NCBI GenBank assembly: GCA_016212295.1
Contig: JACRGO010000042.1
Span: forward strand, 1 to 61,754
Direction of reading: 5' to 3'
Length of the DNA stretch: 61,754 nt
Source: Nitrospinota bacterium
Lineage (GTDB): Bacteria > Nitrospinota > Nitrospinia > JACRGO01
Shown here: positions 20,928 to 61,066 of the stretch, one piece after another
Numbering within the stretch: position 1 is the first letter of the stretch
Layout of the letters: each line of letters starts with the position of its first letter
Notes under the pieces: generated by a model
The model's input: only the letters and a program-made list of their open reading frames with translations
The model's database searches: none
What the model was told of the DNA's origin: nothing
Position numbers and translations under genes: made by a program

Positions 20928-20945
20928 TTGGCACGAGAGATGCTT
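20928..20945 (+). promoter_or_regulatory. sigma-54 (-24/-12) promoter candidate for fliK-flgD-flgE
   Basis: TTGGCACGAGAGATGCTT. GG at 20930-20931 and GC at 20942-20943 have the canonical 12-nt register (consensus TGGCAC-N5-TTGC). It lies about 40 nt upstream of the fliK start. Confidence 0.55.
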
Positions 20946-20980: not shown

Positions 20981-22831
20981 GTGAGACAGGCTTTGAATAC
21001 CAACTCAATACAACTCGAAAGCGCCGCTAACCTTTTAAATTTTTCCGCTAACTTGAATCAGGTCCAGAACATTGCCGGGGACCAAAAGTTTGATCAGGTG
21101 TTCCGGGAGGTTTCTCAAAAACCGCTGGCTTCTCCTCAAGAGCCCAAAAAGGCCAGTTCCATGGAGAAGGCCGGTTCCGCTCAAGGCCAGGGAAATTCCA
21201 AGGCCGCGGAAACAGAAACCAGCAAACCGGATCAAGCGGTTTCCAGGAAACAGCCTGAAACGGATAATAAAGGTAGCGAGATTGCGGCAGCAGCCGATTC
21301 CGCTGGACCGGAAAAAAAGGATTTGCCGGAAGCGGAATCCGCCAATAACGTGGAAACCAATCCAGCGGACGCGCAGGCGGGCATTTCAAGCGTTGACCAA
21401 GGAATTATCCTGGCGGCTGGAGCCGCTGAGGCCTTGAAAGCCGCCTTGATGCTGCAATCAGACGCAAACGCCGCGAACGGCGTCATGAACGCCAGCGCCG
21501 ATATTAATTCCCTGTTGACGGAACCTGGAAAGGCAATGGCTTCTTTCATTAATAATAATGAGCAATCCGGCAGCGCACAGGGAATAATGCCTCAAGACGT
21601 TTTGCAGAGTCCTTCTCAAACCCAGGAGGCGGCTATTGAATCCGCGAACAACGTGAATCAGCAATTGGCGGAAGTTCTTTCCTCCGCCACGCCGGCCGAG
21701 ACCGCTTCTTCCCTTGAGAAAACCCTTGCTCCAGATTCAACCGGATTGAATGCCATGGGCATTGACAGCCGGACCCGGCAAGCGGATATGGCCGCTTCGT
21801 CCCAGGCGGAAGACGCCATTAATCAAAGCCAGGCGGAAGCGTCAAAGGCCAAGAGTGATGCTGCGCAGGTTGTGGACGCGGCTAACGCCCAGGCCAAGGT
21901 TGATTCAGGGCAGGCTATTAATAACTCTCAAGCGGCTGCCGAGGCCAACAAGGGCCAAGAAGCAGCCCTGCCTGCCGTAGCAGCGCAATCTTCAAGCAAG
22001 GAAATCTTCAAGGTGGATCCTAAAGCGGAGCCTGTGAAGGGTCCCGATCCGCTGAAGCAAAAATCACTGGAACATTTAACAAAGCAGGTCCAACCGGAAT
22101 CCTCATTGCAAAAAAACACGGATGGGGAAAATTCCGGCGGAAATGTTTTTTCCATGAATGCCTTGAAGCGGCCGGAGAAAACGGAAAATTCACTGGACCC
22201 CGGAGCAGGCAAAATTGAGTTTCAGTCCTTTGCGGTTCAGGAAAATGCCGTAAACCAGCCAACAACGGAACCGGCCCCAACCGCCAATACATTGGGGACA
22301 GCCTCCGTAACTGGCGAGATCCGGCGGGGGGACTTTCATGCTTCGCATCTCTCGGAAAAGGCCGCCATGAAGGGCGAAATAAAGCCACAGGAGGTTTTTG
22401 AGAGGTCGGTCCTGGACCAGATAGTTTCCAAGGCGTCCCTTATCAACCGGAACGGACAAAATGAGATGCGGATTCAACTCGATCCGCCCTCCCTGGGAAC
22501 CATAAAGGTCCAGGTTTCCGTTGCCGGTGACAATGTGACCGCGAAGTTAATGACGGACAACTCCATCGCCCGTGATATTCTGGAAAAGAACATCCATCAG
22601 CTCAGGGACAGTTTTTCCGAGCAGGGTTTGAAGGTGCAGCAGATGTCGGTCCATGTTGGAAACGATCCAAGGCAGCAGGCAGCGGACCATTTCCGGCCCT
22701 TTTACATGGAAAAGGGTTTTTCCAGAATGAACTCAGCCGGGGCCGGGGAAGACGAGCAAATGAACCAGCCGGTCCTTTCCAGGAACGGCGCCGGGTATAG
22801 TGATAAAGGCGGCATCAGCGTTTTTGCGTGA
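20981..22831 (+). CDS. fliK: flagellar hook-length control protein FliK
   Basis: Low-complexity Ala/Gln/Ser-rich N-terminal two-thirds. The C-terminal Flg_hook-type domain reads IQLDPPSLGTIKVQVSVAGDNVTAKLMTDNSIARDILEKNIHQLRDSF. GTG start. Confidence 0.75.
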   Translation: MRQALNTNSIQLESAANLLNFSANLNQVQNIAGDQKFDQVFREVSQKPLASPQEPKKASSMEKAGSAQGQGNSKAAETETSKPDQAVSRKQPETDNKGSEIAAAADSAGPEKKDLPEAESANNVETNPADAQAGISSVDQGIILAAGAAEALKAALMLQSDANAANGVMNASADINSLLTEPGKAMASFINNNEQSGSAQGIMPQDVLQSPSQTQEAAIESANNVNQQLAEVLSSATPAETASSLEKTLAPDSTGLNAMGIDSRTRQADMAASSQAEDAINQSQAEASKAKSDAAQVVDAANAQAKVDSGQAINNSQAAAEANKGQEAALPAVAAQSSSKEIFKVDPKAEPVKGPDPLKQKSLEHLTKQVQPESSLQKNTDGENSGGNVFSMNALKRPEKTENSLDPGAGKIEFQSFAVQENAVNQPTTEPAPTANTLGTASVTGEIRRGDFHASHLSEKAAMKGEIKPQEVFERSVLDQIVSKASLINRNGQNEMRIQLDPPSLGTIKVQVSVAGDNVTAKLMTDNSIARDILEKNIHQLRDSFSEQGLKVQQMSVHVGNDPRQQAADHFRPFYMEKGFSRMNSAGAGEDEQMNQPVLSRNGAGYSDKGGISVFA

Positions 22832-47594: not shown

Positions 47595-47780
47595 CGCGAC
47601 GCGGCCGCAATCAAAAGGAAATGGGAAACAAAATTACAAATGACAAATATCAAATTACAAATAAATTCCAAATTACAATTACCGAATGTCCAAAACAATT
47701 CCATTTCCTTGTTTGTCATTTGTAAATTTGGTTATTGAGATTTATTTGTGATTTGGCAATTGTGATTTGGATTTTCATAA
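47591..47780. repeat. GCGGC-box + family A word-hairpin element (full copy)
   Basis: ATAGCGCGACGCGGCCGCAATCAAAAGG; the gene's TAG stop at 47592-47594 lies inside the box. Nested inverted words follow: GGAAATGG/CCATTTCC and ACAAATGACAAA/TTTGTCATTTGT. The right module ends in TTTCAT. Confidence 0.9.
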
Positions 47781-47872
47781 CACTTTGCAAAAAAAACAAA
47801 GTGTTATACGTTTGTAGTACAGGAGGAGACTTGAAATTCTTCAGCAATCAATTCAATAAGGGCCTGCATGGT

Positions 47873-49213
47873 ATGTTTTTCCGCGCCCTGCCTGGATGTG
47901 CATTGTTAGTTGTGCTGTTTGGATGCTCCAAACCGCCGGCTGAAAACCTGCTCTTTATTTCCTTTGACACCACGAGGGCGGACCACCTCTCGGCTTACGG
48001 CTATAAAATTAAAACTTCGCCCAATATCGACGCCCTTGCCGCCCAGGGCGTCCTTTTCCAAAGGGCCTTTTCCCATGCGCCTTCCACCCTGCCGTCCCAT
48101 GCTTCCATGTTTACAGGAAAACTACCCCCGGACCACGGCGTTCGCTGCAACGGCAAATTCACGCTGCCGGAAGAACAATTAACGCTTGCGGAAATACTAT
48201 ACGGCAACGGATTTGAAACCGGCGCGGTATTGGGGGCCTTTCCGTTGGACAAGCGTTTCGGACTGGACCAGGGATTCAGTTTTTATGATGATGATTTCAG
48301 ATTGTCACAATTAACTTTAAAACACCAGGCAAGCGAAAGGGTAATGGACAAAGTGGGCTTCTGGCAGGGGCAAACTTATTTGGATTTTGAGCGCAATGCG
48401 TATGAGGTCACAACCCTTGCCACAAAGTGGCTGCAAAAAACAAAGGGAAGGTGGTTCCTTTTCGTTCATTATTTTGATCCACACGAGCCTTATGAACCGC
48501 CCCCGGCTTGGAGGACGCTCTTTGAAAATCAGTATGACGCTGAAATCGCCTTCGCGGACCGCCAGTTAGGGAAGCTCCTGGAGACCGTGAATTCGATGCC
48601 TGGGAAGACGTTAATAGTTTTTACCGCTGACCACGGACAGGGATTGGGAGACCATGGGGAGATAACCCATGATCGCTATCTGTACGACTCCACCCAATGG
48701 ATCCCCCTCGTCTTTTGCATGAAAGATAAGATTAAAGCTGGGAGCAAAATCATAAATCCTGTGAGCCATATAGATGTAATGCCGACCATTCTTGATTTAT
48801 TGGGCGTTCCTTCCACCGAAGGCATTCAAGGAAGGTCATTGGCCAAGGCCATCCTTGCCGGGGAAGACCTGGAAAATAAACCCATTTACATGGAATCCCT
48901 TAGCCATAAACTGGAAAAGCCTGAAGGCATTGACGTCAGGGGCCTGGTGCGGGATAACTGGAAATTCATACTCACCAATGAAGAACATGGGGGTAAAAAG
49001 ACTATAAGGAAAGAGCTTTATGATCTGGACTCCGGGGGGGGGGGGGGGGGGGAGAACGCCGATTTGTCATTAAAGGAAGCGGGCCGCGCCGCTGAGATGG
49101 ATAAAAAATTGTCAGGCTGGGTGGAAAAACTGGAACATGAAGGGGCTAAACCAAACCCCCTTAAAATCAGCGAGGAAACAAGGCAAAAGCTGAAAAGTTT
49201 GGGGTATTTATAA
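47873..49213 (+). CDS. sulfatase-like (alkaline-phosphatase superfamily) lipoprotein
   Basis: Lipobox-like LLVVLFGC. LLFISFDTTRADHLSAYGY metal site. The nucleophile region reads APSTLPSHASMFTG, i.e. T-x-P-S-H rather than C/S-x-P-x-R. I chose the ATG at 47873. Confidence 0.75.
   Translation: MFFRALPGCALLVVLFGCSKPPAENLLFISFDTTRADHLSAYGYKIKTSPNIDALAAQGVLFQRAFSHAPSTLPSHASMFTGKLPPDHGVRCNGKFTLPEEQLTLAEILYGNGFETGAVLGAFPLDKRFGLDQGFSFYDDDFRLSQLTLKHQASERVMDKVGFWQGQTYLDFERNAYEVTTLATKWLQKTKGRWFLFVHYFDPHEPYEPPPAWRTLFENQYDAEIAFADRQLGKLLETVNSMPGKTLIVFTADHGQGLGDHGEITHDRYLYDSTQWIPLVFCMKDKIKAGSKIINPVSHIDVMPTILDLLGVPSTEGIQGRSLAKAILAGEDLENKPIYMESLSHKLEKPEGIDVRGLVRDNWKFILTNEEHGGKKTIRKELYDLDSGGGGGGENADLSLKEAGRAAEMDKKLSGWVEKLEHEGAKPNPLKISEETRQKLKSLGYL
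49034..49052 (+). repeat. G19 homopolymer inside the sulfatase-like CDS
   Basis: I counted 19 consecutive G from 49034 to 49052. They encode Gly6 in the current frame (DLDSGGGGGGENADL). Confidence 0.95.
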
Positions 49214-50990: not shown

Positions 50991-51860
50991 TTGGAAAAGA
51001 AAGATGCCGCCCCATTCAGACACTGGCGCCTGGCTGCCCAGTCCCTGCTGGATATCCACAAGGACAATAGGGACGCGGATGTGGTGCGTCTTGCAAGGCA
51101 AAGATTACAGTTTATTCTTACAGCGAAAGAAACCCCGAAAATCAAGGCCGAGGCGGGTGAGATTTTGGGGTGGCTGGGTGACCCCAGGGGGGACCTGGAG
51201 GAGCTAGTCAGGATAAAAGGGGGAGAATATGAGTTGGAGGATTTGGGCAAGGCAAATTTAAAACCCTTCGGGATAGGAAAATATCCGGTGGCCAACCAGT
51301 GGTTTGAAAAGTTTATTCAGGCCGGAGGGTATAAAGAAGAAAATTGGGAAAGATACTGGACCCCGGAAGGAAGAAAGTGGATGAAGGAGAATAAGCCCCA
51401 GGCCCCTCTGTATTGGCACGAGCGGCAATGGAATTGCCCCAACGCTCCGGTGGTGGGGGTGAGCTGGTACGAGGCGGACGCCTTTTGCCGTTGGCTCACG
51501 GAAGAAAGGAAGGATGGGTTTGTTTATCCCAGGAGTGGCAGGCTGCGGCAGCCGGAAAGGGTGAAAAGGAAAGAGAATATCCTTGGGGGGAATGTGTGGG
51601 AGTGGACAAGATCGGATTACCACGCGAGGACGGAGCGCGATGATTTTTTGTTTGATGAGGAAATACAAAAACTCTATGATACGGAGAGTAGGGATGAACT
51701 ACGAAAGAAATGGCAAGAGAAAAATCGTCAATTGCCGTCGCTCCGGGGCGGTTCGTGGTACTTCTACCGTTGTTTCGCCGGGTGCGCCTACCGCTACTGG
51801 AACTACCCGTACGTACGGTACTTCGATATCGGGTTTCGTTGCGCCAGGACTTCAAAATAA
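50991..51860 (+). CDS. FGE/SUMF1-domain protein, apparently 5'-truncated and carrying a compensated frameshift
   Basis: The N-terminus has a HEAT-like AEAGEILGWLGDPRG. FGE motifs are VVGVSWYEADAFCRWL, GGNVWEWT and LRGGSWY...GFRCART. The expected motif between them (LSQEWQAAAAGKGEKEREYPWG) is in another frame (51413 ORF). TTG start directly after a repeat. Confidence 0.65.
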   Translation: MEKKDAAPFRHWRLAAQSLLDIHKDNRDADVVRLARQRLQFILTAKETPKIKAEAGEILGWLGDPRGDLEELVRIKGGEYELEDLGKANLKPFGIGKYPVANQWFEKFIQAGGYKEENWERYWTPEGRKWMKENKPQAPLYWHERQWNCPNAPVVGVSWYEADAFCRWLTEERKDGFVYPRSGRLRQPERVKRKENILGGNVWEWTRSDYHARTERDDFLFDEEIQKLYDTESRDELRKKWQEKNRQLPSLRGGSWYFYRCFAGCAYRYWNYPYVRYFDIGFRCARTSK

Positions 51861-52297: not shown

Positions 52298-53449
52298 TTG
52301 AACAACCTTAAAATCCTCATGGTCGCCGGGGAGGCGTCAGGCGACAGGCATGGCGCGGACCTGATTCAAAATCTTTCCAGGACCTTTCCGGGTCTCAAGG
52401 TGGCCGGGATCGGCGGCGATAGAATGGCGGGACGGGGCGCGGAGATATTTTTTCATATCCGCGACACCGCGGTGGTGGGCCTGGTAGAAATTCTTGGAAG
52501 CGTCGGCTTCTTTTATGGCCTATACAAAAGGATGCTCCGGGAGATTGACGCCGGGGGATACGACGCGGTTGTACTCATCGACTACCCCACGCTCAATCTC
52601 CGCCTCGCGGCCAGGGCTAAAAAACGGGGAGTCCCGGTCTTTTATTACATCTCCCCCCAAGTGTGGGCCTGGCACGGGAGCCGGGTGAAAAAGCTTGCCC
52701 AAACCGTTACCAAAATGCTGGTGATCCTCCCCTTCGAGGAAAAGATTTACAGGGACGCGGGTCTTCCCTGCGCCTTTGTGGGCCATCCCTTCCTGGACAT
52801 AGTGAAGCCGGATGTTTCCAGGGAAAAATTCTGTGAAAAACATGGACTCGATCCCGCTCGGAAAATCGTGGGACTCCTCCCCGGCAGCCGGAATAACGAG
52901 ATCAACTCCCTGCTCTCCGTGATCCTTCAGTCCGCTGTGATAATCAAAAAAGAAATCCCCGGAATTCAATTCGTCCTCCCGCTGGCGCCCACCATCTCAA
53001 GGGACCGCGTGGCCCCTTTCCTGAAATCCGCCCCGGTCCAGGCCGACTTGGTGGAGGGGGAGACCTTTGACGCCATGAACGCCGCCGACGCTCTTATCAT
53101 CGCCTCAGGCTCCGCCACCCTGGAGGCGGGACTCATCGGGACCCCGATGGTAATAGTATACAAGGTGAGCCCGCTCACCTACTTTCTGGGGAAGAGGCTG
53201 GTGAAGGTCCAGTACATAGGACTAGTCAACATAGTGGCCGGGAAGGCGGTTGCGCCTGAACTCATCCAGCACGAGGCGAACCCTGAACGCACCGCGGACC
53301 TGACCCTTGAATACCTGCGGGACGAGGAGAAAAATTTCCGGACCAGGGAGGAGTTGAAGAGGCTCAGGGAATCCCTTGGCGAGAGCGGCGCTTCAAGACG
53401 CGCGGCCGGGGAGATAGCGGAGAGGCTTAAGAAGAGGAAAGGAAATTGA
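52298..53449 (+). CDS. lpxB: lipid-A-disaccharide synthase
   Basis: ILMVAGEASGDRHGADLI N-terminus, YYISPQVWAWHGSR, and ASGSATLEAGLIGTPMVIVYK. Confidence 0.9.
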   Translation: MNNLKILMVAGEASGDRHGADLIQNLSRTFPGLKVAGIGGDRMAGRGAEIFFHIRDTAVVGLVEILGSVGFFYGLYKRMLREIDAGGYDAVVLIDYPTLNLRLAARAKKRGVPVFYYISPQVWAWHGSRVKKLAQTVTKMLVILPFEEKIYRDAGLPCAFVGHPFLDIVKPDVSREKFCEKHGLDPARKIVGLLPGSRNNEINSLLSVILQSAVIIKKEIPGIQFVLPLAPTISRDRVAPFLKSAPVQADLVEGETFDAMNAADALIIASGSATLEAGLIGTPMVIVYKVSPLTYFLGKRLVKVQYIGLVNIVAGKAVAPELIQHEANPERTADLTLEYLRDEEKNFRTREELKRLRESLGESGASRRAAGEIAERLKKRKGN

Positions 53450-53730
53450 AAATTTGAAATTGTAAATTGAGGACCTTGCCGGCTCCATAATCCCGCAAGG
53501 GCGAAAGAGCAATTCCGCCAATTTAAACTGCAAGAGTGATTTTTGCGGTTTTTTCTTTTGTCGTTTTAATGGGATAAAGGTATAATAAGTTTCCTGCCAA
53601 TAAAGAAGAAACAAAATGAAGGCATTGATAGTTGACTTAAAAGACAAAACGAACGACGTGCTTTATAAGAAGCGGCGGGAGAAGGATTTAAAGAACCACC
53701 CTTTTTTCGGAATGTTGGAAGCGGACAAGG

Positions 53731-53820
53731 TAAATCCTTTCTTCCTTTTTCGACGTTCGATGTTCAGCGTTGGATGTTCGATGTTCAATTCTTTAAAGCC
53801 CGCCCGAAGGGCGTTAAATT
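53731..53820. repeat. family B half element with conserved tail
   Basis: TAAATCCTTTCTTCCTTTTTCGACGTTCGATGTTCAGCGTTGGATGTTCGATGTTCAATTCTTTAAAGCCCGCCCGAAGGGCGTTAAATT is about 90 percent identical to 75-163. Confidence 0.9.
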
Positions 53821-53918
53821 CTAATCCAACCTTGGGGCCGCTGACGCCATCATAGCCGCGACCGCGGTTGAGAATGATTTAACCCTTCTGACGTCTTTTC
53901 TCCAGGCCGGAACGCGCC

Positions 53919-56900
53919 ATGTCCGACATACAAAAATACATTTCCTTTCTAAAGGTCCACCCTCCGTTCAACCAGATGCCATACGATCTCGTGGAAAAGG
54001 TGGCCTGGACGCTCCAGGTCCACCACTATGGGGCCGGCCGGACCATCTTCCGCAAAGGTGAGGAGGCCATGATCTTCTACATCATCCACAAGGGGGTCGT
54101 CAGGGAACTGGTCCGTGGAGATGACGGGAAGGAAACGGTTATTTCCCTGCTCAGGAGCGGAGAGTGTTTCGGGGCAATATCCATCCTGACAGGCCAGAGG
54201 CGGAGGCTGGACGCGGTGGTGGAGGAAGACGTGGAGCTGTACGTCATTTATAAGGCCGACCTTGAGCGTCTGTTTTCCGAAAATCCCGGCATGATCATGT
54301 ATTTCAACCGGATACTCACCTTCAAGCTCAACATGTTTTTTGAGTATTTTGACAGGGGAATGATCACCGTGGCAGGTAAGGACAGGTCCACCGAGGAATT
54401 GGCGAGGGAACTTTCCGCCATGGATGAAATCGCCAAAATACTGAGCGCGGAGGGCGATGTTGAGGACTCCTTGCAGCAGGTGGTGGAGATCCTCAGGGAG
54501 TGGACCCGGACGGACGCCTGTTCCATGTTTCTTCTTGATAATATGTCGGACCGCCTGGAACTCAAGGCGTCCTCCGGTTTTGATATCCCGGAGGGCAAGC
54601 CGGTCATCATGAAGGCCAGCGAGGGAATAACCGGGTGGGTAGTGAGGAACTGCGAGCCGGTGAAGCTCGAAAACGCCTCTTCCGATCCGCGGGCCAAGTT
54701 CATCGCCGAAATCCATGAGGAGCGTTTTAAATCGATCCTCTCCGTGCCCCTGGTGGCTGGTGGGGAATCCTTCGGAGCGATCAACTTCCATACAATCCGC
54801 CCCAGGAAATATAAATACGAGGAGGTAAAGGGGGTGGCCATAGCCGGAGGGCACATAGCCCTGGCCCTCTCCAACGCCAAGCTCAAGAAGAGGATAGAGG
54901 TGGACACTGATATCCTGCGGCTTGAAAAGGGGGCGGAGCCTGACGACTTCGTCGGGAGGAGTCCGCTGTCGAAAAAAATAAACGAATTCGTGGACAAGGC
55001 CGCTGGTTCCAGTTCACCGGTCCTTATAGAGGGGGAGGCGGGCACCGGGAAGGAGCTCATCGCGCGGCTTATCCATTCCAGCGGGACCAGAAAGGGCGGC
55101 CCGTTTCTGGAGGCCGACTGCGGCCAATTCGCCGCGGATAGCTGGGGCGCTGAATTATTCGGCATGGAAGGGGAAGAGGCGGGGCCTGCAAGGATACTGA
55201 GGCGGGGTTATGTGGAAATGGCCGAGGGAGGGATTCTCTTTCTAAGGAATATCGAGAAACTGAACGGCGTCTGCCAGATGGCCTTGTTCAACTTCCTGGA
55301 ATCGGGGTTCTTCAATCGGGTGGGGAGCAAGACGCAGATCGGCGGCAATGTAAGGATAATCTGCTCCTCCAAGGCGTCTCTCAAGGAGCTGGCGCACAGT
55401 GGTTCTTTTAATAAAAACGCTTACGAGGCATTGAGCAGGTTCGAGTTCAAGCTGGAGCCTTTGCGGAAGCTGAAGAGATTCGTGCCGGAATTGTGTGATT
55501 ATCTTCTCAAGAGGATCGGCAGGCAGATAGGCAAGGAAGGCATGGCCCTCTCGGCGCCTGCCGTGGAAAAAGTCCTCTCTTACGACTGGCCAGGAAACGT
55601 GGCGGAATTAGAAAACGTCCTGAAAGGCGCCGCGATCCTGACGGAAGGGAAGGTGATAGGCGCCGGGCAGCTCTTCTTCCCGGCCCGGTCCTTAAAGGAC
55701 AAGCCTGTATATGACCTCCTTGCCCATTCGTGGTTGTCGAATTTTCTGCGGGGCAGGTTCTTCCCGGACTATCTGGGGAAGGGGATGTTTTTCATTTTCG
55801 CCGTCCTGCTGGGCTATCTATTAACGCACCCGGATGAAAAATTCTTTACCTCCGGGATTTGGGCTATTGGATGGTTCTCCATCTTTTTAAGCGCCTTTTT
55901 CCTGGGCCGGGTCTTTTGCGCCGTGTGTCCCTTCATGGTGGGCGGCGACCTCCTGCGAAAGGTCAAATCATTCAACCTGAAGTGCCCGCCTTTCATTTCC
56001 AATCATGGCGAGGCCGTTGCCGCTGCCTTGATCTTCGTGGTCCTGTGGATGGAGGGGGCCTTCGGATTCCATTTCACTCCCTTGTACACAGCGGGCTTGC
56101 TGCTATTCATCGCCCTTGGGGCAATGGCGTGTTCCGTTCTCTTTCAGAGGCGGGTGTGGTGCCGCTATCTGTGTCCAATGGGGAGCTTCATAGGGACCTT
56201 TTCCCTGACCTCGTTTTTGTCCGTAAGCGCGGACCGTTACGTATGCACCTACCGCTGCGCCAATCATGAGTGCTATGTGGGCAAGGGGGACTCACCTGGC
56301 TGCCAGTTGTTCTTGCATCCTTACGGTATGGAAAGCCAGGCCCAGTGCGTTTTGTGCATGCAGTGCCTGAAGAATTGTCCCTTGGGCGCGGTGAACCTGA
56401 ATCTCCAATTTCCGGCCACTGGAATCATTGCAATGGTGAAGCCCTTCATGGCCGCGGCTTTGGCGTCCTCCGGACTGCTGGGCGTCATGCCAGTGGAAAC
56501 AAAGGCCATACTTGGCCCAGGATCGTTTTTCTTCGACGATTTTAAGTCCATGGCCGGCATGGGCGCGGCGCCGCTTTACACCGTTATTTTCCTGTGCGCC
56601 GCCGTTCTGCCAGCCTTTCTTTTCTTTTTAGTGGAGAAGGTCCTGGGCGGACACGGCTTCAGGAAATCCATGGCCCGCTTTGCGTGGATAGGGTATTCGG
56701 CGCTCCCCCTTGCCGTATTGGGACACGCGGCCTTTTACTGGAAGAAGGTCGTGATGTGGGTAGAGGACGGGATGCAGGATTATGGAATACTGCCTATTGA
56801 TTTTCTTTCGGCCAACCTGATTTTTTACGCCTTGTATTTCGCGATAATGATTTTAGGGGCGCTGGGTTCCATCCATACCTTTCTAAGGCTAAGCCGCCAT

Positions 56901-56996
56901 GAACCGCGGCTGCTTCAAACCGGCGGGAAGGTCAAGGCCGGTTACCTGGGCATCCTGATGTTTTATATGTTCCTCTACATCCTTTCCGTTGCCTGA
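53919..56996 (+). CDS. cNMP-binding - GAF - degenerate sigma-54-type AAA+ - NapH/NosR-like polytopic 4Fe-4S membrane domain protein
   Basis: cNMP fold (FGAISILTGQRRRLDAV). GAF (ITGWVVRNCEPVKLEN...SILSVPL). AAA+ with Walker A GEAGTGKE, ELFG and WPGNVAELENV, but no GAFTGA loop (MEGEEAGPA instead) and Walker B LFLRNI instead of LFLDEI. There is no C-terminal HTH. Instead there are more than 8 TM helices with CAVCPF, WCRYLCPMG and CVLCMQCLKNCPLGA. Confidence 0.75.
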   Translation: MSDIQKYISFLKVHPPFNQMPYDLVEKVAWTLQVHHYGAGRTIFRKGEEAMIFYIIHKGVVRELVRGDDGKETVISLLRSGECFGAISILTGQRRRLDAVVEEDVELYVIYKADLERLFSENPGMIMYFNRILTFKLNMFFEYFDRGMITVAGKDRSTEELARELSAMDEIAKILSAEGDVEDSLQQVVEILREWTRTDACSMFLLDNMSDRLELKASSGFDIPEGKPVIMKASEGITGWVVRNCEPVKLENASSDPRAKFIAEIHEERFKSILSVPLVAGGESFGAINFHTIRPRKYKYEEVKGVAIAGGHIALALSNAKLKKRIEVDTDILRLEKGAEPDDFVGRSPLSKKINEFVDKAAGSSSPVLIEGEAGTGKELIARLIHSSGTRKGGPFLEADCGQFAADSWGAELFGMEGEEAGPARILRRGYVEMAEGGILFLRNIEKLNGVCQMALFNFLESGFFNRVGSKTQIGGNVRIICSSKASLKELAHSGSFNKNAYEALSRFEFKLEPLRKLKRFVPELCDYLLKRIGRQIGKEGMALSAPAVEKVLSYDWPGNVAELENVLKGAAILTEGKVIGAGQLFFPARSLKDKPVYDLLAHSWLSNFLRGRFFPDYLGKGMFFIFAVLLGYLLTHPDEKFFTSGIWAIGWFSIFLSAFFLGRVFCAVCPFMVGGDLLRKVKSFNLKCPPFISNHGEAVAAALIFVVLWMEGAFGFHFTPLYTAGLLLFIALGAMACSVLFQRRVWCRYLCPMGSFIGTFSLTSFLSVSADRYVCTYRCANHECYVGKGDSPGCQLFLHPYGMESQAQCVLCMQCLKNCPLGAVNLNLQFPATGIIAMVKPFMAAALASSGLLGVMPVETKAILGPGSFFFDDFKSMAGMGAAPLYTVIFLCAAVLPAFLFFLVEKVLGGHGFRKSMARFAWIGYSALPLAVLGHAAFYWKKVVMWVEDGMQDYGILPIDFLSANLIFYALYFAIMILGALGSIHTFLRLSRHEPRLLQTGGKVKAGYLGILMFYMFLYILSVA

Positions 56997-59839: not shown

Positions 59840-60748
59840 ATGGCTAAATTCATAGGCAGAAGGGAATTTTTGAAATCCATAGGCGCCACCGTCGCAGGGA
59901 TTTCCTTGACCCAGGTTTATAATCCCCTGGTGGCCAAGGCCTTGGCCGAGGTCGTTCAAACCGCGCCGCCCGTCATCTGGTTCGCCGGGGGGACCTGCGG
60001 GGGATGCTCCATTTCCGCCCTCAACGCCATGGCCCCCCAGATCGACGAAATCCTCCTGAAGATGATCACCCTGCACTACCACATCAATATAAGCGCCTCC
60101 TCCGGGGAAACCCTCATGGAGCATGTCTACAAGGTCATGGAGGAGCACAAGGGAAAATACATTTATATTCAGGAAGGGGTGGTCTCCACCGCGGCGGAGG
60201 GACGCTTTTGCGTGGTGGGAGAGTACAAGGGAAAGAAAATCGCCATGGCCCAGCTTGCGAAGGAATTGGCGCAAAACGCGCAAGCCGTGGTCGCGGTGGG
60301 CAGTTGCTCCGCCTTTGGGGGCATTCCCTCCGCCCCGCCCAATCCAACGGGAGTCAAACCCTTAAGCGAGGTTGTGGACAAACCCGTGATCAATATCCCC
60401 GGCTGCCCGGCCCATCCCGATGACGTCTTCGGCACATTGATTTACTATTTAAAAAACGGATTGCCCGAACTGGATCAGCACAACAGGCCAAAGCTCTTCT
60501 TCGGCGAGGAAATCCACCAGAAGTGTTTCCTCAAGCCCCAATTCGACGCGGAAAACATGGCCGAAAATTTCGGTGAGCAGGGAAAATGTTACGCCCTGCT
60601 GGGGTGCCTGGGGCCGAAAACGCATTGCAACTCCTGGAAGCGCGGGTGGAATAGCAACATCAACTGGTGCGTGAAGAGCGGGTCCCATTGCATCGCCTGC
60701 ACGGAGCCGACCTTCTCGAAAACAAAGGCCGGGATGTACGCGTACTGA
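59840..60748 (+). CDS. [NiFe]-hydrogenase small subunit (Tat signal)
   Basis: Twin-arginine leader GRREFLKSIGATVAGISL. Proximal-cluster motifs GGTCGGCSIS and GSCSAFGGIP...PGCPAHP. Distal-cluster residues HQKC...CLGPKTHC...CIAC. Confidence 0.85.
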   Translation: MAKFIGRREFLKSIGATVAGISLTQVYNPLVAKALAEVVQTAPPVIWFAGGTCGGCSISALNAMAPQIDEILLKMITLHYHINISASSGETLMEHVYKVMEEHKGKYIYIQEGVVSTAAEGRFCVVGEYKGKKIAMAQLAKELAQNAQAVVAVGSCSAFGGIPSAPPNPTGVKPLSEVVDKPVINIPGCPAHPDDVFGTLIYYLKNGLPELDQHNRPKLFFGEEIHQKCFLKPQFDAENMAENFGEQGKCYALLGCLGPKTHCNSWKRGWNSNINWCVKSGSHCIACTEPTFSKTKAGMYAY

Positions 60749-60757
60749 CGAGGCATT

Positions 60758-61066
60758 ATGAAAACGATTGCATTTGACACTCATTTATATATTAAGAAAT
60801 TAAAGGCAGTTGGAGTTCCCGAAGAGCAGGCGGAGGTGCAAGCGGAAACCATTGCCGAATTGCTGGAAGACAATTTGGCCACGAAGCGGGACTTGAAGGA
60901 GCTTGAGCAGGCCACGAAACGGGACTTGAAGGAGCTTGAGCAGGCCACGAAACGGGACTTAAAGGAACTTGAAACAAACCTTATTATGCGGTTGGGGAAG
61001 ATGTTGGCCGTCACGGCAGGCATCATTATCGCCGCGCTTTCGGCGTTGATAAAAATCCTTGTTTAA
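60758..61066 (+). CDS. DUF1640-like coiled-coil, C-terminally membrane-anchored protein
   Basis: MKTIAFDTHLYIKKLKAVGVPEEQAEVQAETIAELL start. Three copies of ATKRDLKELEQ. C-terminal TM helix LAVTAGIIIAALSALIKILV. Confidence 0.7.
   Translation: MKTIAFDTHLYIKKLKAVGVPEEQAEVQAETIAELLEDNLATKRDLKELEQATKRDLKELEQATKRDLKELETNLIMRLGKMLAVTAGIIIAALSALIKILV
60878..60976 (+). repeat. 3 x 33-bp tandem repeat inside the DUF1640 CDS
   Basis: GCCACGAAGCGGGACTTGAAGGAGCTTGAGCAG (60878-60910), with near-identical units at 60911-60943 and 60944-60976. Confidence 0.95.

Follow-up and report, generated by a model that had tools for sequence, protein, structure and literature searches.

Membrane polyferredoxins of several kinds are known in bacteria. 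CcoG/FixG/RdxA and their short homologue YccM are of this type, and CcoG serves the assembly of the cbb3 oxidase. In NapH and MauN, the ferredoxin subunits of quinol dehydrogenases, a core of four TM helices with a pair of CxxCP motifs is followed at the C-terminus by a cytoplasmic ferredoxin-like region that carries two canonical CxxCxxCxxxCP motifs. NosR/NirI, once miscalled “transcriptional regulator”, belong to the same superfamily and have a periplasmic FMN-binding domain. CcoG, a cupric reductase, carries two [4Fe-4S] clusters, and a homologue of it has been recognized in YccM (PMC7558416). The enhancer-binding proteins (bEBPs) with a GAF input, i.e., NifA, NorR and FhlA, have a regulatory, a central AAA+ and an output domain in this order. 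There are also atypical, sigma-54-independent EBPs (VpsR, TyrR, PhhR, HupR, HsfA, NtrX) with N-terminal sensors and an AAA+ domain without GAFTGA that nevertheless keep the C-terminal HTH and are DNA-binding transcription factors. In VpsR the Walker B DE is replaced by a non-consensus ND (PMC6158489).

Elements of these two worlds are joined in one protein in the window analyzed here, a stretch of 61,754 nucleotides of a Nitrospinota bacterium (contig JACRGO010000042.1, assembly GCA_016212295.1). A single gene flanked by lpxB and trkAH encodes, from an ATG start and without internal stop, 1025 aa in the order cNMP-fold, GAF, bEBP-type AAA+, lid and a 432-aa membrane domain (Table 1). The sequence-only reading of this DNA had already proposed the fusion, and it is real. 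The identical 1025-aa protein is encoded in an independent assembly (Logan SRR12113407), the same single-ORF architecture is found in a 97% homologue and in at least nine other full-length homologues, and at 39 reference-genome loci the fusion likewise forms one ORF. Consensus scanning suggests that the gene may have its own promoter, with a leader of ca. 330 nt in which no Rfam family was matched.

Table 1. Features of the fusion gene and its upstream region (coordinates in the window).
Feature	Coordinates	Strand	Basis
Terminator-like hairpin 3' of lpxB	53525..53551	+	12-bp stem, T-run; consensus scan only
Sigma-70-type promoter-like site, TTGTCG-17-TATAAT	53558..53586	+	10/12 match; consensus alone
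Complete ORF, 1025 aa	53919..56996	+	Same protein in independent assembly; full-length homologues
CAP/cNMP-binding-fold sensor, aa 35-122	54021..54284	+	Pfam PF00027, E 1.8e-20; phosphate-binding cassette non-canonical
GAF sensor, NifA/PtsP-like, aa 180-317	54456..54869	+	Pfam GAF_2/GAF/GAF_3; NCBIfam NifA alignment
bEBP-type AAA+ core, catalytically degenerate, aa 345-509	54951..55445	+	Pfam PF00158, E 1.8e-35; NtrC1, E 1e-50
Walker A GEAGTGKE, aa 372-379, kept	55032..55055	+	G372, G375 and K378 invariant in 18 homologues
L1-loop remnant GMEGEEAGPA, aa 415-424, where GAFTGA is expected	55161..55190	+	NtrC1 alignment
Walker B remnant ILFLRNIEKL, aa 439-448; DE replaced by R443-N444	55233..55262	+	NtrC1 alignment
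AAA+ lid, aa 522-586	55482..55676	+	Pfam PF25601 (AAA_lid_14)
Membrane Fe-S domain, aa 594-1025, ~9 TM, N-in	55698..56993	+	Hydropathy, positive-inside, AF2, family profile search
First CxxCP, C667-C670-P671, cytoplasmic end of TM2	55917..55931	+	Invariant
Second motif C748-R-Y-L-C752-P753 (Cx3CP), cytoplasmic end of TM4	56160..56177	+	Invariant; WCRYLCP identical in E. coli YccM
Cytoplasmic 8-Cys loop	56244..56381	+	Invariant Cys; aligned to NapH and YccM ferredoxin motifs
Extra C-terminal 5-TM bundle, aa 834-1025	56418..56993	+	Topology, AF2; beyond hhalign matches

The central domain is of the bEBP type, as had been recognized, and its motifs could be aligned against the NtrC1 structures (PDB 1ny5/1ny6/4l4u, E ~1e-50). 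In this alignment GYEKGAFTGA lies opposite GMEGEEAGPA and LFLDEIGEL opposite LFLRNIEKL, confirming that the sigma-54-contacting loop and the Walker B acidic pair are lost, the latter replaced by Arg-Asn at exactly the position read from the DNA alone. The degeneration goes beyond what had been noticed and is deeper than in the atypical EBPs, since the sensor I Asn (K485), both Arg fingers (N498 and A504) and the sensor II Arg (A562, within the GNVAELEN of the lid) are also gone. Without either Arg finger the usual nucleotide contacts between subunits are gone, and ring assembly may be lost too. The remnant of the L1 loop at 419-424 has a pLDDT below 50 in the predicted model. What follows 3' of the lid, where a Fis-type HTH is usual (not universal) in bEBPs, is transmembrane, and the Pfam search of the 1025-aa protein gave no match to HTH_8 (PF02954) even at E<=1, in line with the lack of an HTH described before.

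All these losses are a property of the family. GAFTGA is absent in 16/16 close homologues and, like the Walker B DE, was found in 0/103 representative and 0/34 genome-derived complete fused AAA+ domains; Arg finger 1 is present in none of the 103 members and the L1 loop is degenerate or deleted across the fused family. No homologue had an intact GAFTGA, DE pair or HTH, so ATP hydrolysis and sigma-54 remodelling, previously considered unlikely for the single protein, look unlikely for the whole family. The Walker A position holds Lys in 87/103 members, Arg in 11/103 and another residue in 5/103, and the motif reads GxxGLEK in cyanobacterial members; given these variants, nucleotide binding is not universal in the family. 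Conservation of the AAA+ core equals that of the other domains (57–59% within the nearest clade and ~40% in the one after it), i.e., the core is held by purifying selection although catalytically dead. By these comparisons the degenerate condition of the domain is ancestral and has been maintained, and is not that of a decayed singleton.

At the N-terminus, the CAP-fold domain is well above the gathering score of PF00027 (73.1 against 27.5 bits). However, its phosphate-binding cassette, FGAISILTGQRRRLDA, is non-canonical: the FGE...R[ST]A of the consensus reads FGA...RRL, with the Arg retained, the Glu changed to Ala and R-S-A to R-R-L. For this reason cyclic-nucleotide binding should not be presumed. 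Throughout the family the Arg of the cassette is found in 21/74 and the Glu in 54/74. The GAF domain falls within the alignment to the NCBIfam NifA model, which spans residues 164-588. A large variety of inputs was found in other members (cNMP, cNMP+GAF, GAF, FHA+GAF, FHA+cNMP, REC, HisKA+REC and AIM24+cNMP), cNMP being dominant (70/150 top representatives), while the core formed by the AAA+ and the membrane domain is constant.

The C-terminal part was indeed a polytopic membrane domain, modelled by AF2 with a pLDDT of 85 and a pTM of 0.86, to which we add a bundle of five TM helices at its end that had been overlooked. The four Cys motifs read from the sequence are all present (CAVCP 667-671, WCRYLCP 747-753, CTYRCANHEC 776-785 and CVLCMQCLKNCP 810-821), the invariant Cys amount to 12, and the predicted topology places every motif on the cytoplasmic side, adjacent to the AAA+ part. 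Pfam detects two Fer4_5 domains (28.1 bits, cut-off 22). In the 8-Cys loop the first group is non-canonical (C776-x3-C780-x4-C785-x9-C795) and the second canonical (C810-x2-C813-x2-C816-x3-C820-P); the loop is predicted to bind two [4Fe-4S] clusters, their number and type being uncertain because of the first group. The model of the complete monomer does not define the geometry between domains (pTM 0.49), and no solved structures resembling the membrane domain were found.

The assignment of this domain to the NapH/MauN/NosR type has to be modified. Hhalign matched the module to E. coli YccM (98.6%, E 7e-16, 184 columns) and to E. coli NapH (97.3%, E 2.7e-11), both matches ending at about column 240-270, while the NCBIfam models were all below their cut-offs: NapH/MauN (TIGR02163) with E 3.8e-6 and 26.6 bits against 213.05 (stand-alone relatives of the module reach 34–40 bits), CcoG/FixG/RdxA (TIGR02745) with 11.6 bits against 316.7 and NosR (NF046105) with E 1.5 and 7 bits against 1000. 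Judged from these profiles, the homology of the module to NapH and YccM/CcoG is genuine though distant; the YccM/CcoG branch is nearer to it than NapH or NosR are, and the module belongs to none of these families. With YccM/CcoG it shares the polytopic character, the CxxCP-type motifs at cytoplasmic TM ends and the cytoplasmic Cys-rich ferredoxin-like loop. However, ccoGHIS or cbb3 genes do not accompany it, the periplasmic Ig-like domain of CcoG is replaced by the 5-TM bundle, the first Cys group is Cx3Cx4Cx9C and not CxxCxxCxxxCP, and neither characterized CcoG nor YccM has anything like the ca. 590-aa cytoplasmic sensor/AAA+ part. The plan of NapH/MauN, with its core of four TM helices, pair of CxxCP motifs and C-terminal ferredoxin-like region, is also recognizable, but only one of the two ferredoxin motifs is canonical (810-821, the other being Cx3Cx4Cx9C at 776-795), and the sensor/AAA+ part and the TM bundle are additional, the latter absent from NapH and partly matched in YccM. 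No nap or mau genes (NapG/NapC partner) were found in the flanks within the window, nor nap genes in the homologue loci. Unlike NosR/NirI, the fusion lacks a periplasmic FMN-binding domain (no FMN_bind match by Pfam in the 1025 aa) and a nos or nir context.

The membrane domain defines a family of at least 794 representative clusters (50% identity) and more than 517 reference-genome loci, and fusions make up about half of the genome loci examined. They were found in Nitrospinota, Nitrospirota, Planctomycetota (anammox Scalindua), Desulfobacterota, Cyanobacteria (Oscillatoria, Laspinema, Pantanalinema, Geitlerinema, Nodosilinea), Acidobacteriota, Armatimonadota and Chloroflexota. Some hosts are in culture, e.g., Desulfosediminicola flagellatus and Laspinema olomoucense, which have the fusion, or Neobacillus drentensis and Cellulomonas septica, with the module alone. 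The stand-alone form, of ~450 aa and with the same 12 Cys, occurs in Firmicutes, Actinobacteria and Chloroflexi; to judge from these sequences the module is autonomous. A link of the module to copper is seen in CtaG+module and COX2-like+module fusions and in the gene neighborhoods. Copper-type genes, i.e., those for a YtkA-like His/Met-rich exported protein, an HMA P-type ATPase, a Met-rich protein or CoxII, lie beside the stand-alone sister clade in 26/41 loci, which agrees with a CcoG-like role (PMC7558416). The fused clade had such neighbors in 0/39 loci and no conserved partner gene in the homologue loci examined, so any inference about copper, or substrate in general, is second-hand for the fusion. 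As had been suspected, the family is uncharacterized, and the literature gave no earlier description of it.

About even odds can be given to the interpretation that we favor, a one-component membrane redox protein that is gated by signals and has a bEBP as its chassis, in which the DNA-binding output has been exchanged for a 9-TM polyferredoxin module. Its essentials, a sensor-gated Fe-S membrane module with a non-catalytic AAA+ scaffold, had been put forward in the sequence-only reading and held up in every test run: the catalytic and contact residues lost family-wide, the missing HTH, the fusion kept across phyla, the shuffled inputs and the homology to NapH and YccM/CcoG. The order regulatory, AAA+ and output would be retained, with a polyferredoxin of the YccM/CcoG/NapH superfamily as output that would offer two CxxCP sites and the 8-Cys loop at the cytoplasmic face of the membrane. 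The CAP-fold and GAF domains would take small-molecule signals, not necessarily cAMP or cGMP. The AAA+ domain, probably still binding nucleotide but without hydrolysis or contact with sigma-54, may act as a conformational or oligomerization switch that relays the signal to the membrane module. The latter would most likely pass electrons from a cytoplasmic or quinol donor to a membrane-proximal acceptor; our best guess for the latter would be a metal ion, e.g., Cu(II), in view of the analogy to CcoG and of the copper genes near the stand-alone clade.

The direction of the signal, from sensors through the pseudo-ATPase to the Fe-S module, is the most likely one because the inputs vary over a constant AAA+-membrane core. 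Redox state, O2 and NO are often sensed through Fe-S clusters, and the flow could be reversed, with the membrane module sensing the redox state of the quinone pool, O2, NO or a metal and the AAA+/GAF/cNMP part as output through contacts with partners other than sigma-54. The lack of a linked enzymatic partner or substrate gene in the fused clade and the purifying selection on a dead AAA+ would fit such a sensor, which we consider unlikely, though with an appreciable chance. However, cNMP, GAF, FHA and REC are classical inputs and precisely the parts that are shuffled, the stand-alone module sits in operons with copper-handling genes, as effectors, but not sensors, typically do, and the AAA+, with its L1 loop degenerate or deleted, has no candidate output surface.

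Another proposal from the sequence was an anti-activator that titrates a bEBP or sigma-54. Tethered to the membrane, the dead AAA+ would enter mixed inactive rings with a bEBP or bind sigma-54, sequestration being controlled by the sensors and by redox state. Hosts among Nitrospinota, Nitrospirota and Desulfobacterota generally have sigma-54. In three Desulfomonile-type loci (L052, L061 and L066) the gene is directly preceded, on its own strand, by those of a histidine kinase and of an NtrC-type bEBP in which GAFTGA and DE are intact, and another NtrC-type pair is near P0016 in locus L004. As the function of the family this is nonetheless quite improbable: a genuine bEBP is a neighbor in only 3/39 fused loci, the sigma-54-contacting loop is missing from every member, a mere anchor does not explain the strictly conserved 12-Cys, 9-TM module common to stand-alone proteins, and the fusion is found in Cyanobacteria, a phylum reported to be without sigma-54 and EBPs alike (PMC3162934).

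Even less credible is a true sigma-54-dependent activator, possibly freed from the membrane by proteolysis. The strong Sigma54_activat match in Pfam and the name given by PGAP to the homologues (“sigma 54-interacting transcriptional regulator”) would suggest it, and the GAF-AAA+ order recalls NifA, NorR and FhlA, but GAFTGA, DE, sensor I, sensor II and both Arg fingers, on which sigma-54 contact and ATPase activity depend, have all been lost together with the DNA-binding domain. The NCBIfam bEBP equivalogs are all far under their cut-offs (the best, NifA, 206.9 against 528.85), and the database label is almost certainly wrong. Finally, that two separate genes were joined by assembly error or frameshift is refuted, although other phyla do carry the membrane module as a separate gene, by the identical protein from SRR12113407, by the continuous ORF in dozens of species from at least eight phyla and by the loci examined, none of which has a separate AAA+ gene ahead of the stand-alone one.

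A large family has thus been systematically named for a function of which all the determinants are missing. The chassis of the bEBPs persists under selection without ATP hydrolysis, sigma-54 contact or DNA binding, even in a phylum reported to be free of sigma-54, and the fused proteins offer a natural case for testing the capacities of an AAA+ module that no longer hydrolyses ATP. With somewhat less than even confidence, we propose a new class of one-component transducers, spread over at least eight phyla, in which the bEBP chassis would have been re-targeted from RNA polymerase to the membrane and an AAA+ ring or dimer, able to bind nucleotide but dead in hydrolysis, would couple second-messenger, phosphorylation and FHA inputs post-translationally to an Fe-S electron-transfer or metal-reductase module. 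If true, this would be the first known case of a membrane redox enzyme gated by an AAA+ pseudo-ATPase, and several hundred “sigma-54-interacting transcriptional regulator” entries would be mis-annotated. From its associations with YtkA-like proteins, P1B-ATPases, CoxII and CtaG, the stand-alone sister clade of Gram-positive bacteria and Chloroflexi looks like one more branch, the third, of the CcoG-type reductases, and the fused clade suggests that such redox modules may be placed under direct second-messenger or phosphorylation control.

The gene under study is a single ORF with no internal stop, whose product carries, from the N-terminus, a cNMP-binding domain, a GAF domain, an AAA+ domain of the sigma-54-type enhancer-binding proteins (bEBPs) with its lid, and a membrane Fe-S domain. 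Since an independent assembly encodes an identical protein, the fusion is one gene, as the sequence-only reading had it, and a frameshift or assembly artefact is excluded for this ORF. That reading had also noted the lack of a Fis-type HTH, and indeed Pfam found no HTH_8 match in the whole protein, even at E<=1. The NCBIfam bEBP equivalogs matched only the GAF-AAA+ part, all far below their cut-offs (the top one, NifA, reached 206.9 vs. 528.85 bits). The AF2 model of the full-length monomer (pTM 0.49) left the inter-domain geometry undefined, with flexible linkers at residues 142-156, 328-343 and 589-594.

Coordinates of the features discussed (nucleotides of the window, unless given as residues, aa, or as positions in a homologue locus)
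Feature	Position	Strand	Remark
Fusion gene	53919-56996	+	1025 aa
cNMP_binding	aa 35-122		Pfam
GAF	aa 180-317		Pfam
Sigma54_activat	aa 345-509		Pfam
AAA_lid_14	aa 522-586		Pfam
Fer4_5			Pfam, two matches
Leader	53587-53918		~330 nt, promoter-like site to start codon
Small antisense ORF	53393-53647		overlaps leader region
Sulfatase gene	47735-49213		upstream of fusion gene
FGE-sulfatase gene	50991-51860		upstream of fusion gene
[NiFe] hydrogenase small-subunit gene	59840-60748
102-aa ORF	60758-61066	+	immediately after small-subunit gene
Sigma-54-like site	20929-20944	+	TGGCACGAGAGATGCT
ORF after sigma-54-like site	20981-22831		starts 37 nt downstream of the site
FGE-sulfatase gene, locus L001	7574-8380		upstream of Nitrospinota homologue
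Class III cyclase gene, locus L006	6313-7536		adjoins fusion gene

The alignment to the solved bEBP NtrC1 (E ~1e-50) placed GMEGEEAGPA opposite GYEKGAFTGA, the sigma-54-contacting loop (L1), and LFLRNIEKL opposite LFLDEIGEL, confirming the loss of GAFTGA and of the Walker B DE pair that had been proposed, with the Walker B segment located exactly. Further losses, unlisted at that stage, affect the sensor I Asn (K485), the sensor II Arg (A562) and both Arg fingers (N498 and A504); the Walker A motif, GEAGTGKE, is intact. In a census of 103 complete fused AAA+ domains, GAFTGA, the canonical DE pair, the first Arg finger and the sensor I Asn were each found in 0/103, any acidic Walker B pair in 4/103 (KN, EN, RH and RN being the commonest pairs), the second Arg finger in 7/103 and the sensor II Arg in 17/103. 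The Walker A Lys was kept in 87/103 and replaced by Arg in 11/103. The same losses recurred in 34 genome-derived fusions, so that neither set held a homologue with an intact GAFTGA or DE pair; in the cyanobacterial fusions the L1 loop is wholly deleted and Walker B reads NN. Run through the same alignments as an internal control, an ordinary bEBP (P0013) had every canonical motif. Between homologues the AAA+ core has changed no faster than the GAF and membrane parts (57-59% and ~40% identity), indicating that it is maintained by selection. Judged by its motifs, the fused AAA+ domain is a predicted, conserved pseudo-ATPase, and the loss of the Arg fingers may have abolished ring formation too.

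The fusion is a large family and not a one-off. A first homology search recovered full-length homologues with the same architecture, together with variants carrying other N-terminal sensors (FHA+GAF and FHA+cNMP among them); identity to the window protein was 97% for the closest, 51-58% in Nitrospinota MAGs and 36-38% in Nitrospirota and Scalindua. A word-indexed search that used only the membrane domain underestimated the family (9 matches) and an exhaustive profile search with this domain was required; at E<=1e-3 it gave 4359 representative clusters, and 794 at the stricter E<=1e-30. The top 150 matches were mostly 820-930 aa long with the membrane domain C-terminal. When these and 17 earlier matches were classified, cNMP+AAA+ was dominant (70) and the window type, cNMP+GAF+AAA+, a minority (7), accompanied by GAF+AAA+, by fragments truncated at the N-terminus and by stand-alone forms; Pfam added REC, HisKA+REC and AIM24+cNMP in otherwise unexplained N-termini. 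With each GTDB species represented by a single genome, a scan gave more than 517 loci with the membrane domain, and the best 80 of these comprised 39 fusions and 41 stand-alone genes. The 39 fusions came from Desulfobacterota, Scalindua and other Planctomycetota, Nitrospirae, Thermoanaerobaculia, Armatimonadetes, Dehalococcoidia and five Oscillatoriales-type cyanobacteria, and the 41 stand-alone proteins (~450-485 aa) from Firmicutes, Actinobacteria and Chloroflexi. One Thermodesulfobacteriota MAG has two paralogous genes for a cNMP-AAA+-membrane fusion, separated by three genes' distance (locus L072, ORFs 2 and 5).

The membrane domain has about nine TM helices with the N-terminus inside, according to hydropathy, the positive-inside rule and an AF2 model (pLDDT 85, pTM 0.86). 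CxxCP motifs are predicted where TM2 (C667/C670) and TM4 (C748/C752) reach the cytoplasm, an 88-residue cytoplasmic loop holds eight further Cys (Cx3Cx4Cx9C plus a canonical CxxCxxCxxxCP), and a 5-TM bundle follows C-terminally. Invariant residues are twelve Cys, W648, R664, R744, R749, G755 and one acidic position in TM3. The four Cys motifs quoted in the sequence-only reading were all exact. Its assignment to the NapH/MauN/NosR type held as far as distant homology to E. coli NapH is concerned (hhalign 97.3%, E 2.7e-11); the short CcoG-type protein YccM of E. coli is another distant homologue (98.6%, E 7e-16), with an identical WCRYLCP. However, the domain scores far below the curated NapH/MauN, CcoG and NosR cut-offs and, although alike in the membrane part, departs from the YccM/CcoG and NapH families in thresholds and contexts; NosR membership was rejected. 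The PDB gave no meaningful match by sequence (best E 0.65) or by fold (Foldseek with the confident AF2 model, best E 0.41, TM below 0.2), and no solved structure offers a template for the mechanism.

The fused genes gave no direct evidence on what this module does. At 18 of the 41 stand-alone loci (L011, L020, L022, L023, L028, L030, L031, L033-L036, L047, L049, L051, L055, L063, L064, L070) a gene for a YtkA-like, His/Met-rich exported protein lies immediately upstream of the match (at ~8001 of the locus) on the same strand; other neighbours were HMA-domain P-type ATPases (6), Met-rich small proteins (4) and CoxII-cytochrome c (4). Among the best 80 of more than 517 loci, at least one copper-type neighbour was found in 26/41 stand-alone loci vs. 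0/39 fusions. In Firmicutes and Chloroflexi the stand-alone and YtkA-like genes form an apparent two-gene operon, often with genes for a copper P-type ATPase, CoxII or an OmpR-type two-component system close by. The pair has the look of an uncharacterised system for handling copper, one separate from ccoGHIS. Two more distant relatives carry the membrane Fe-S domain fused to CtaG, the CuB-insertion factor of cytochrome oxidase (P0125, 754 aa), and to a COX2/cupredoxin-like domain (P0126, 674 aa). YccM has a characterised relative in CcoG, a cupric reductase that contains two [4Fe-4S] clusters (PMC7558416). By analogy, the best available inference is that the module would be an electron-transfer or metal (Cu) reductase, which for the fused clade specifically comes second-hand from the stand-alone relatives.

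No partner gene common to the fused-clade loci was found. Synteny was lineage-specific only (hisD/prs/rsmG/leuB in Desulfobulbales, ftsZ in Oscillatoriales), and GGDEF/EAL/HD-GYP genes occur near a few fusions. In the window the fusion gene comes after lpxB and before a trkA-trkH pair that converges on it, and it looks monocistronic; the 470-bp upstream gap contains a terminator-like hairpin and a 10/12 match to a sigma-70-type promoter, followed by a leader partly overlapped by a small antisense ORF. Rfam gave zero matches over the whole window, leader included. Sulfatase and FGE-sulfatase (formylglycine-generating enzyme-like) genes precede the fusion gene, and an FGE-sulfatase gene also precedes the Nitrospinota homologue L001, probably as lineage synteny and not as a functional link. 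Further downstream, a 102-aa ORF with three tandem copies of ATKRDLKELEQ sits where the large-subunit gene of a [NiFe] hydrogenase might be expected.

Across the family the variable part is the N-terminus (cNMP, GAF, FHA, REC or HisKA-REC, all classical input modules), the constant part is the degenerate AAA+ plus membrane domain, and the membrane domain is also an autonomous protein in other taxa. The regulatory-central-output logic of bEBPs is kept, with a membrane Fe-S module in place of the DNA-binding output. The N-terminal sensors would bind their signals, and the AAA+ module, hydrolysis-dead but presumably still nucleotide-binding, would alter its oligomeric state or its conformation, in the way that bEBP rings respond to their regulatory domains. 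The change would act as a switch on the cytoplasm-facing Fe-S and CxxCP sites, affecting how active they are or how they are arranged, and these sites would perform electron transfer or metal reduction. As a whole, this scheme, the one that we favour, seems to us about equally apt to hold or to fail. The reversed flow, with the Fe-S membrane module as the sensor, we regard as unlikely. The ligand need not be cAMP or cGMP, since the cNMP pocket of the window protein departs from the canonical FGE...R[ST]A, reading FGA...RRL, and the key Arg is present in 21/74 family-wide. Class III adenylate/guanylate cyclase genes adjoin fusion genes in three unrelated loci (L006, L007 and L014), consistent with a cyclic-nucleotide input and too sparse as proof.

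Another alternative is that the fusion acts as an anti-activator of bEBPs or sigma-54. In three Desulfomonile-type genomes (L052, L061 and L066) the two genes before the fusion (-2, -1), on the same strand, encode a histidine kinase and a genuine NtrC-type bEBP with GAFTGA and DE intact, the only neighbourhood to suggest crosstalk with true sigma-54 activators. However, such bEBP neighbours are rare, and the cyanobacterial members also tell against this role, which we consider very improbable. All sequenced Cyanobacteria, as well as Actinobacteria, have been reported to lack sigma-54 and its EBPs (PMC3162934). As to sigma-54 INDEPENDENCE, the fusion is present in Oscillatoria, Laspinema, Pantanalinema, Geitlerinema and Nodosilinea despite that reported phylum-wide absence. 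A genuine sigma-54 activator was considered and rejected as next to impossible. No sigma-54 promoter pattern was found upstream of the fusion gene, and the whole window held 10 matches vs. 28 expected by chance. One site, TGGCACGAGAGATGCT, differs from the -24/-12 consensus by one mismatch; it may be nothing, the pattern being rarer than chance in the window, and if real it would mean that the host uses sigma-54.

Degenerate AAA+ domains are also known in atypical EBPs such as VpsR, which lacks GAFTGA and has ND for DE, TyrR, NtrX and others (PMC6158489). Unlike the fusion, these all keep the HTH and bind DNA. The architecture had not been recognised as that of a characterised family, and full-text literature searches yielded no description of it; databases label it by domain only, as 'sigma 54-interacting transcriptional regulator' or, at JGI, '.../polyferredoxin'. 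We rate the fusion as known kinds recombined, an atypical EBP chassis with a CcoG-type polyferredoxin, and consider it possible, if somewhat short of probable, that this is a truly new kind of membrane redox device gated by signals.
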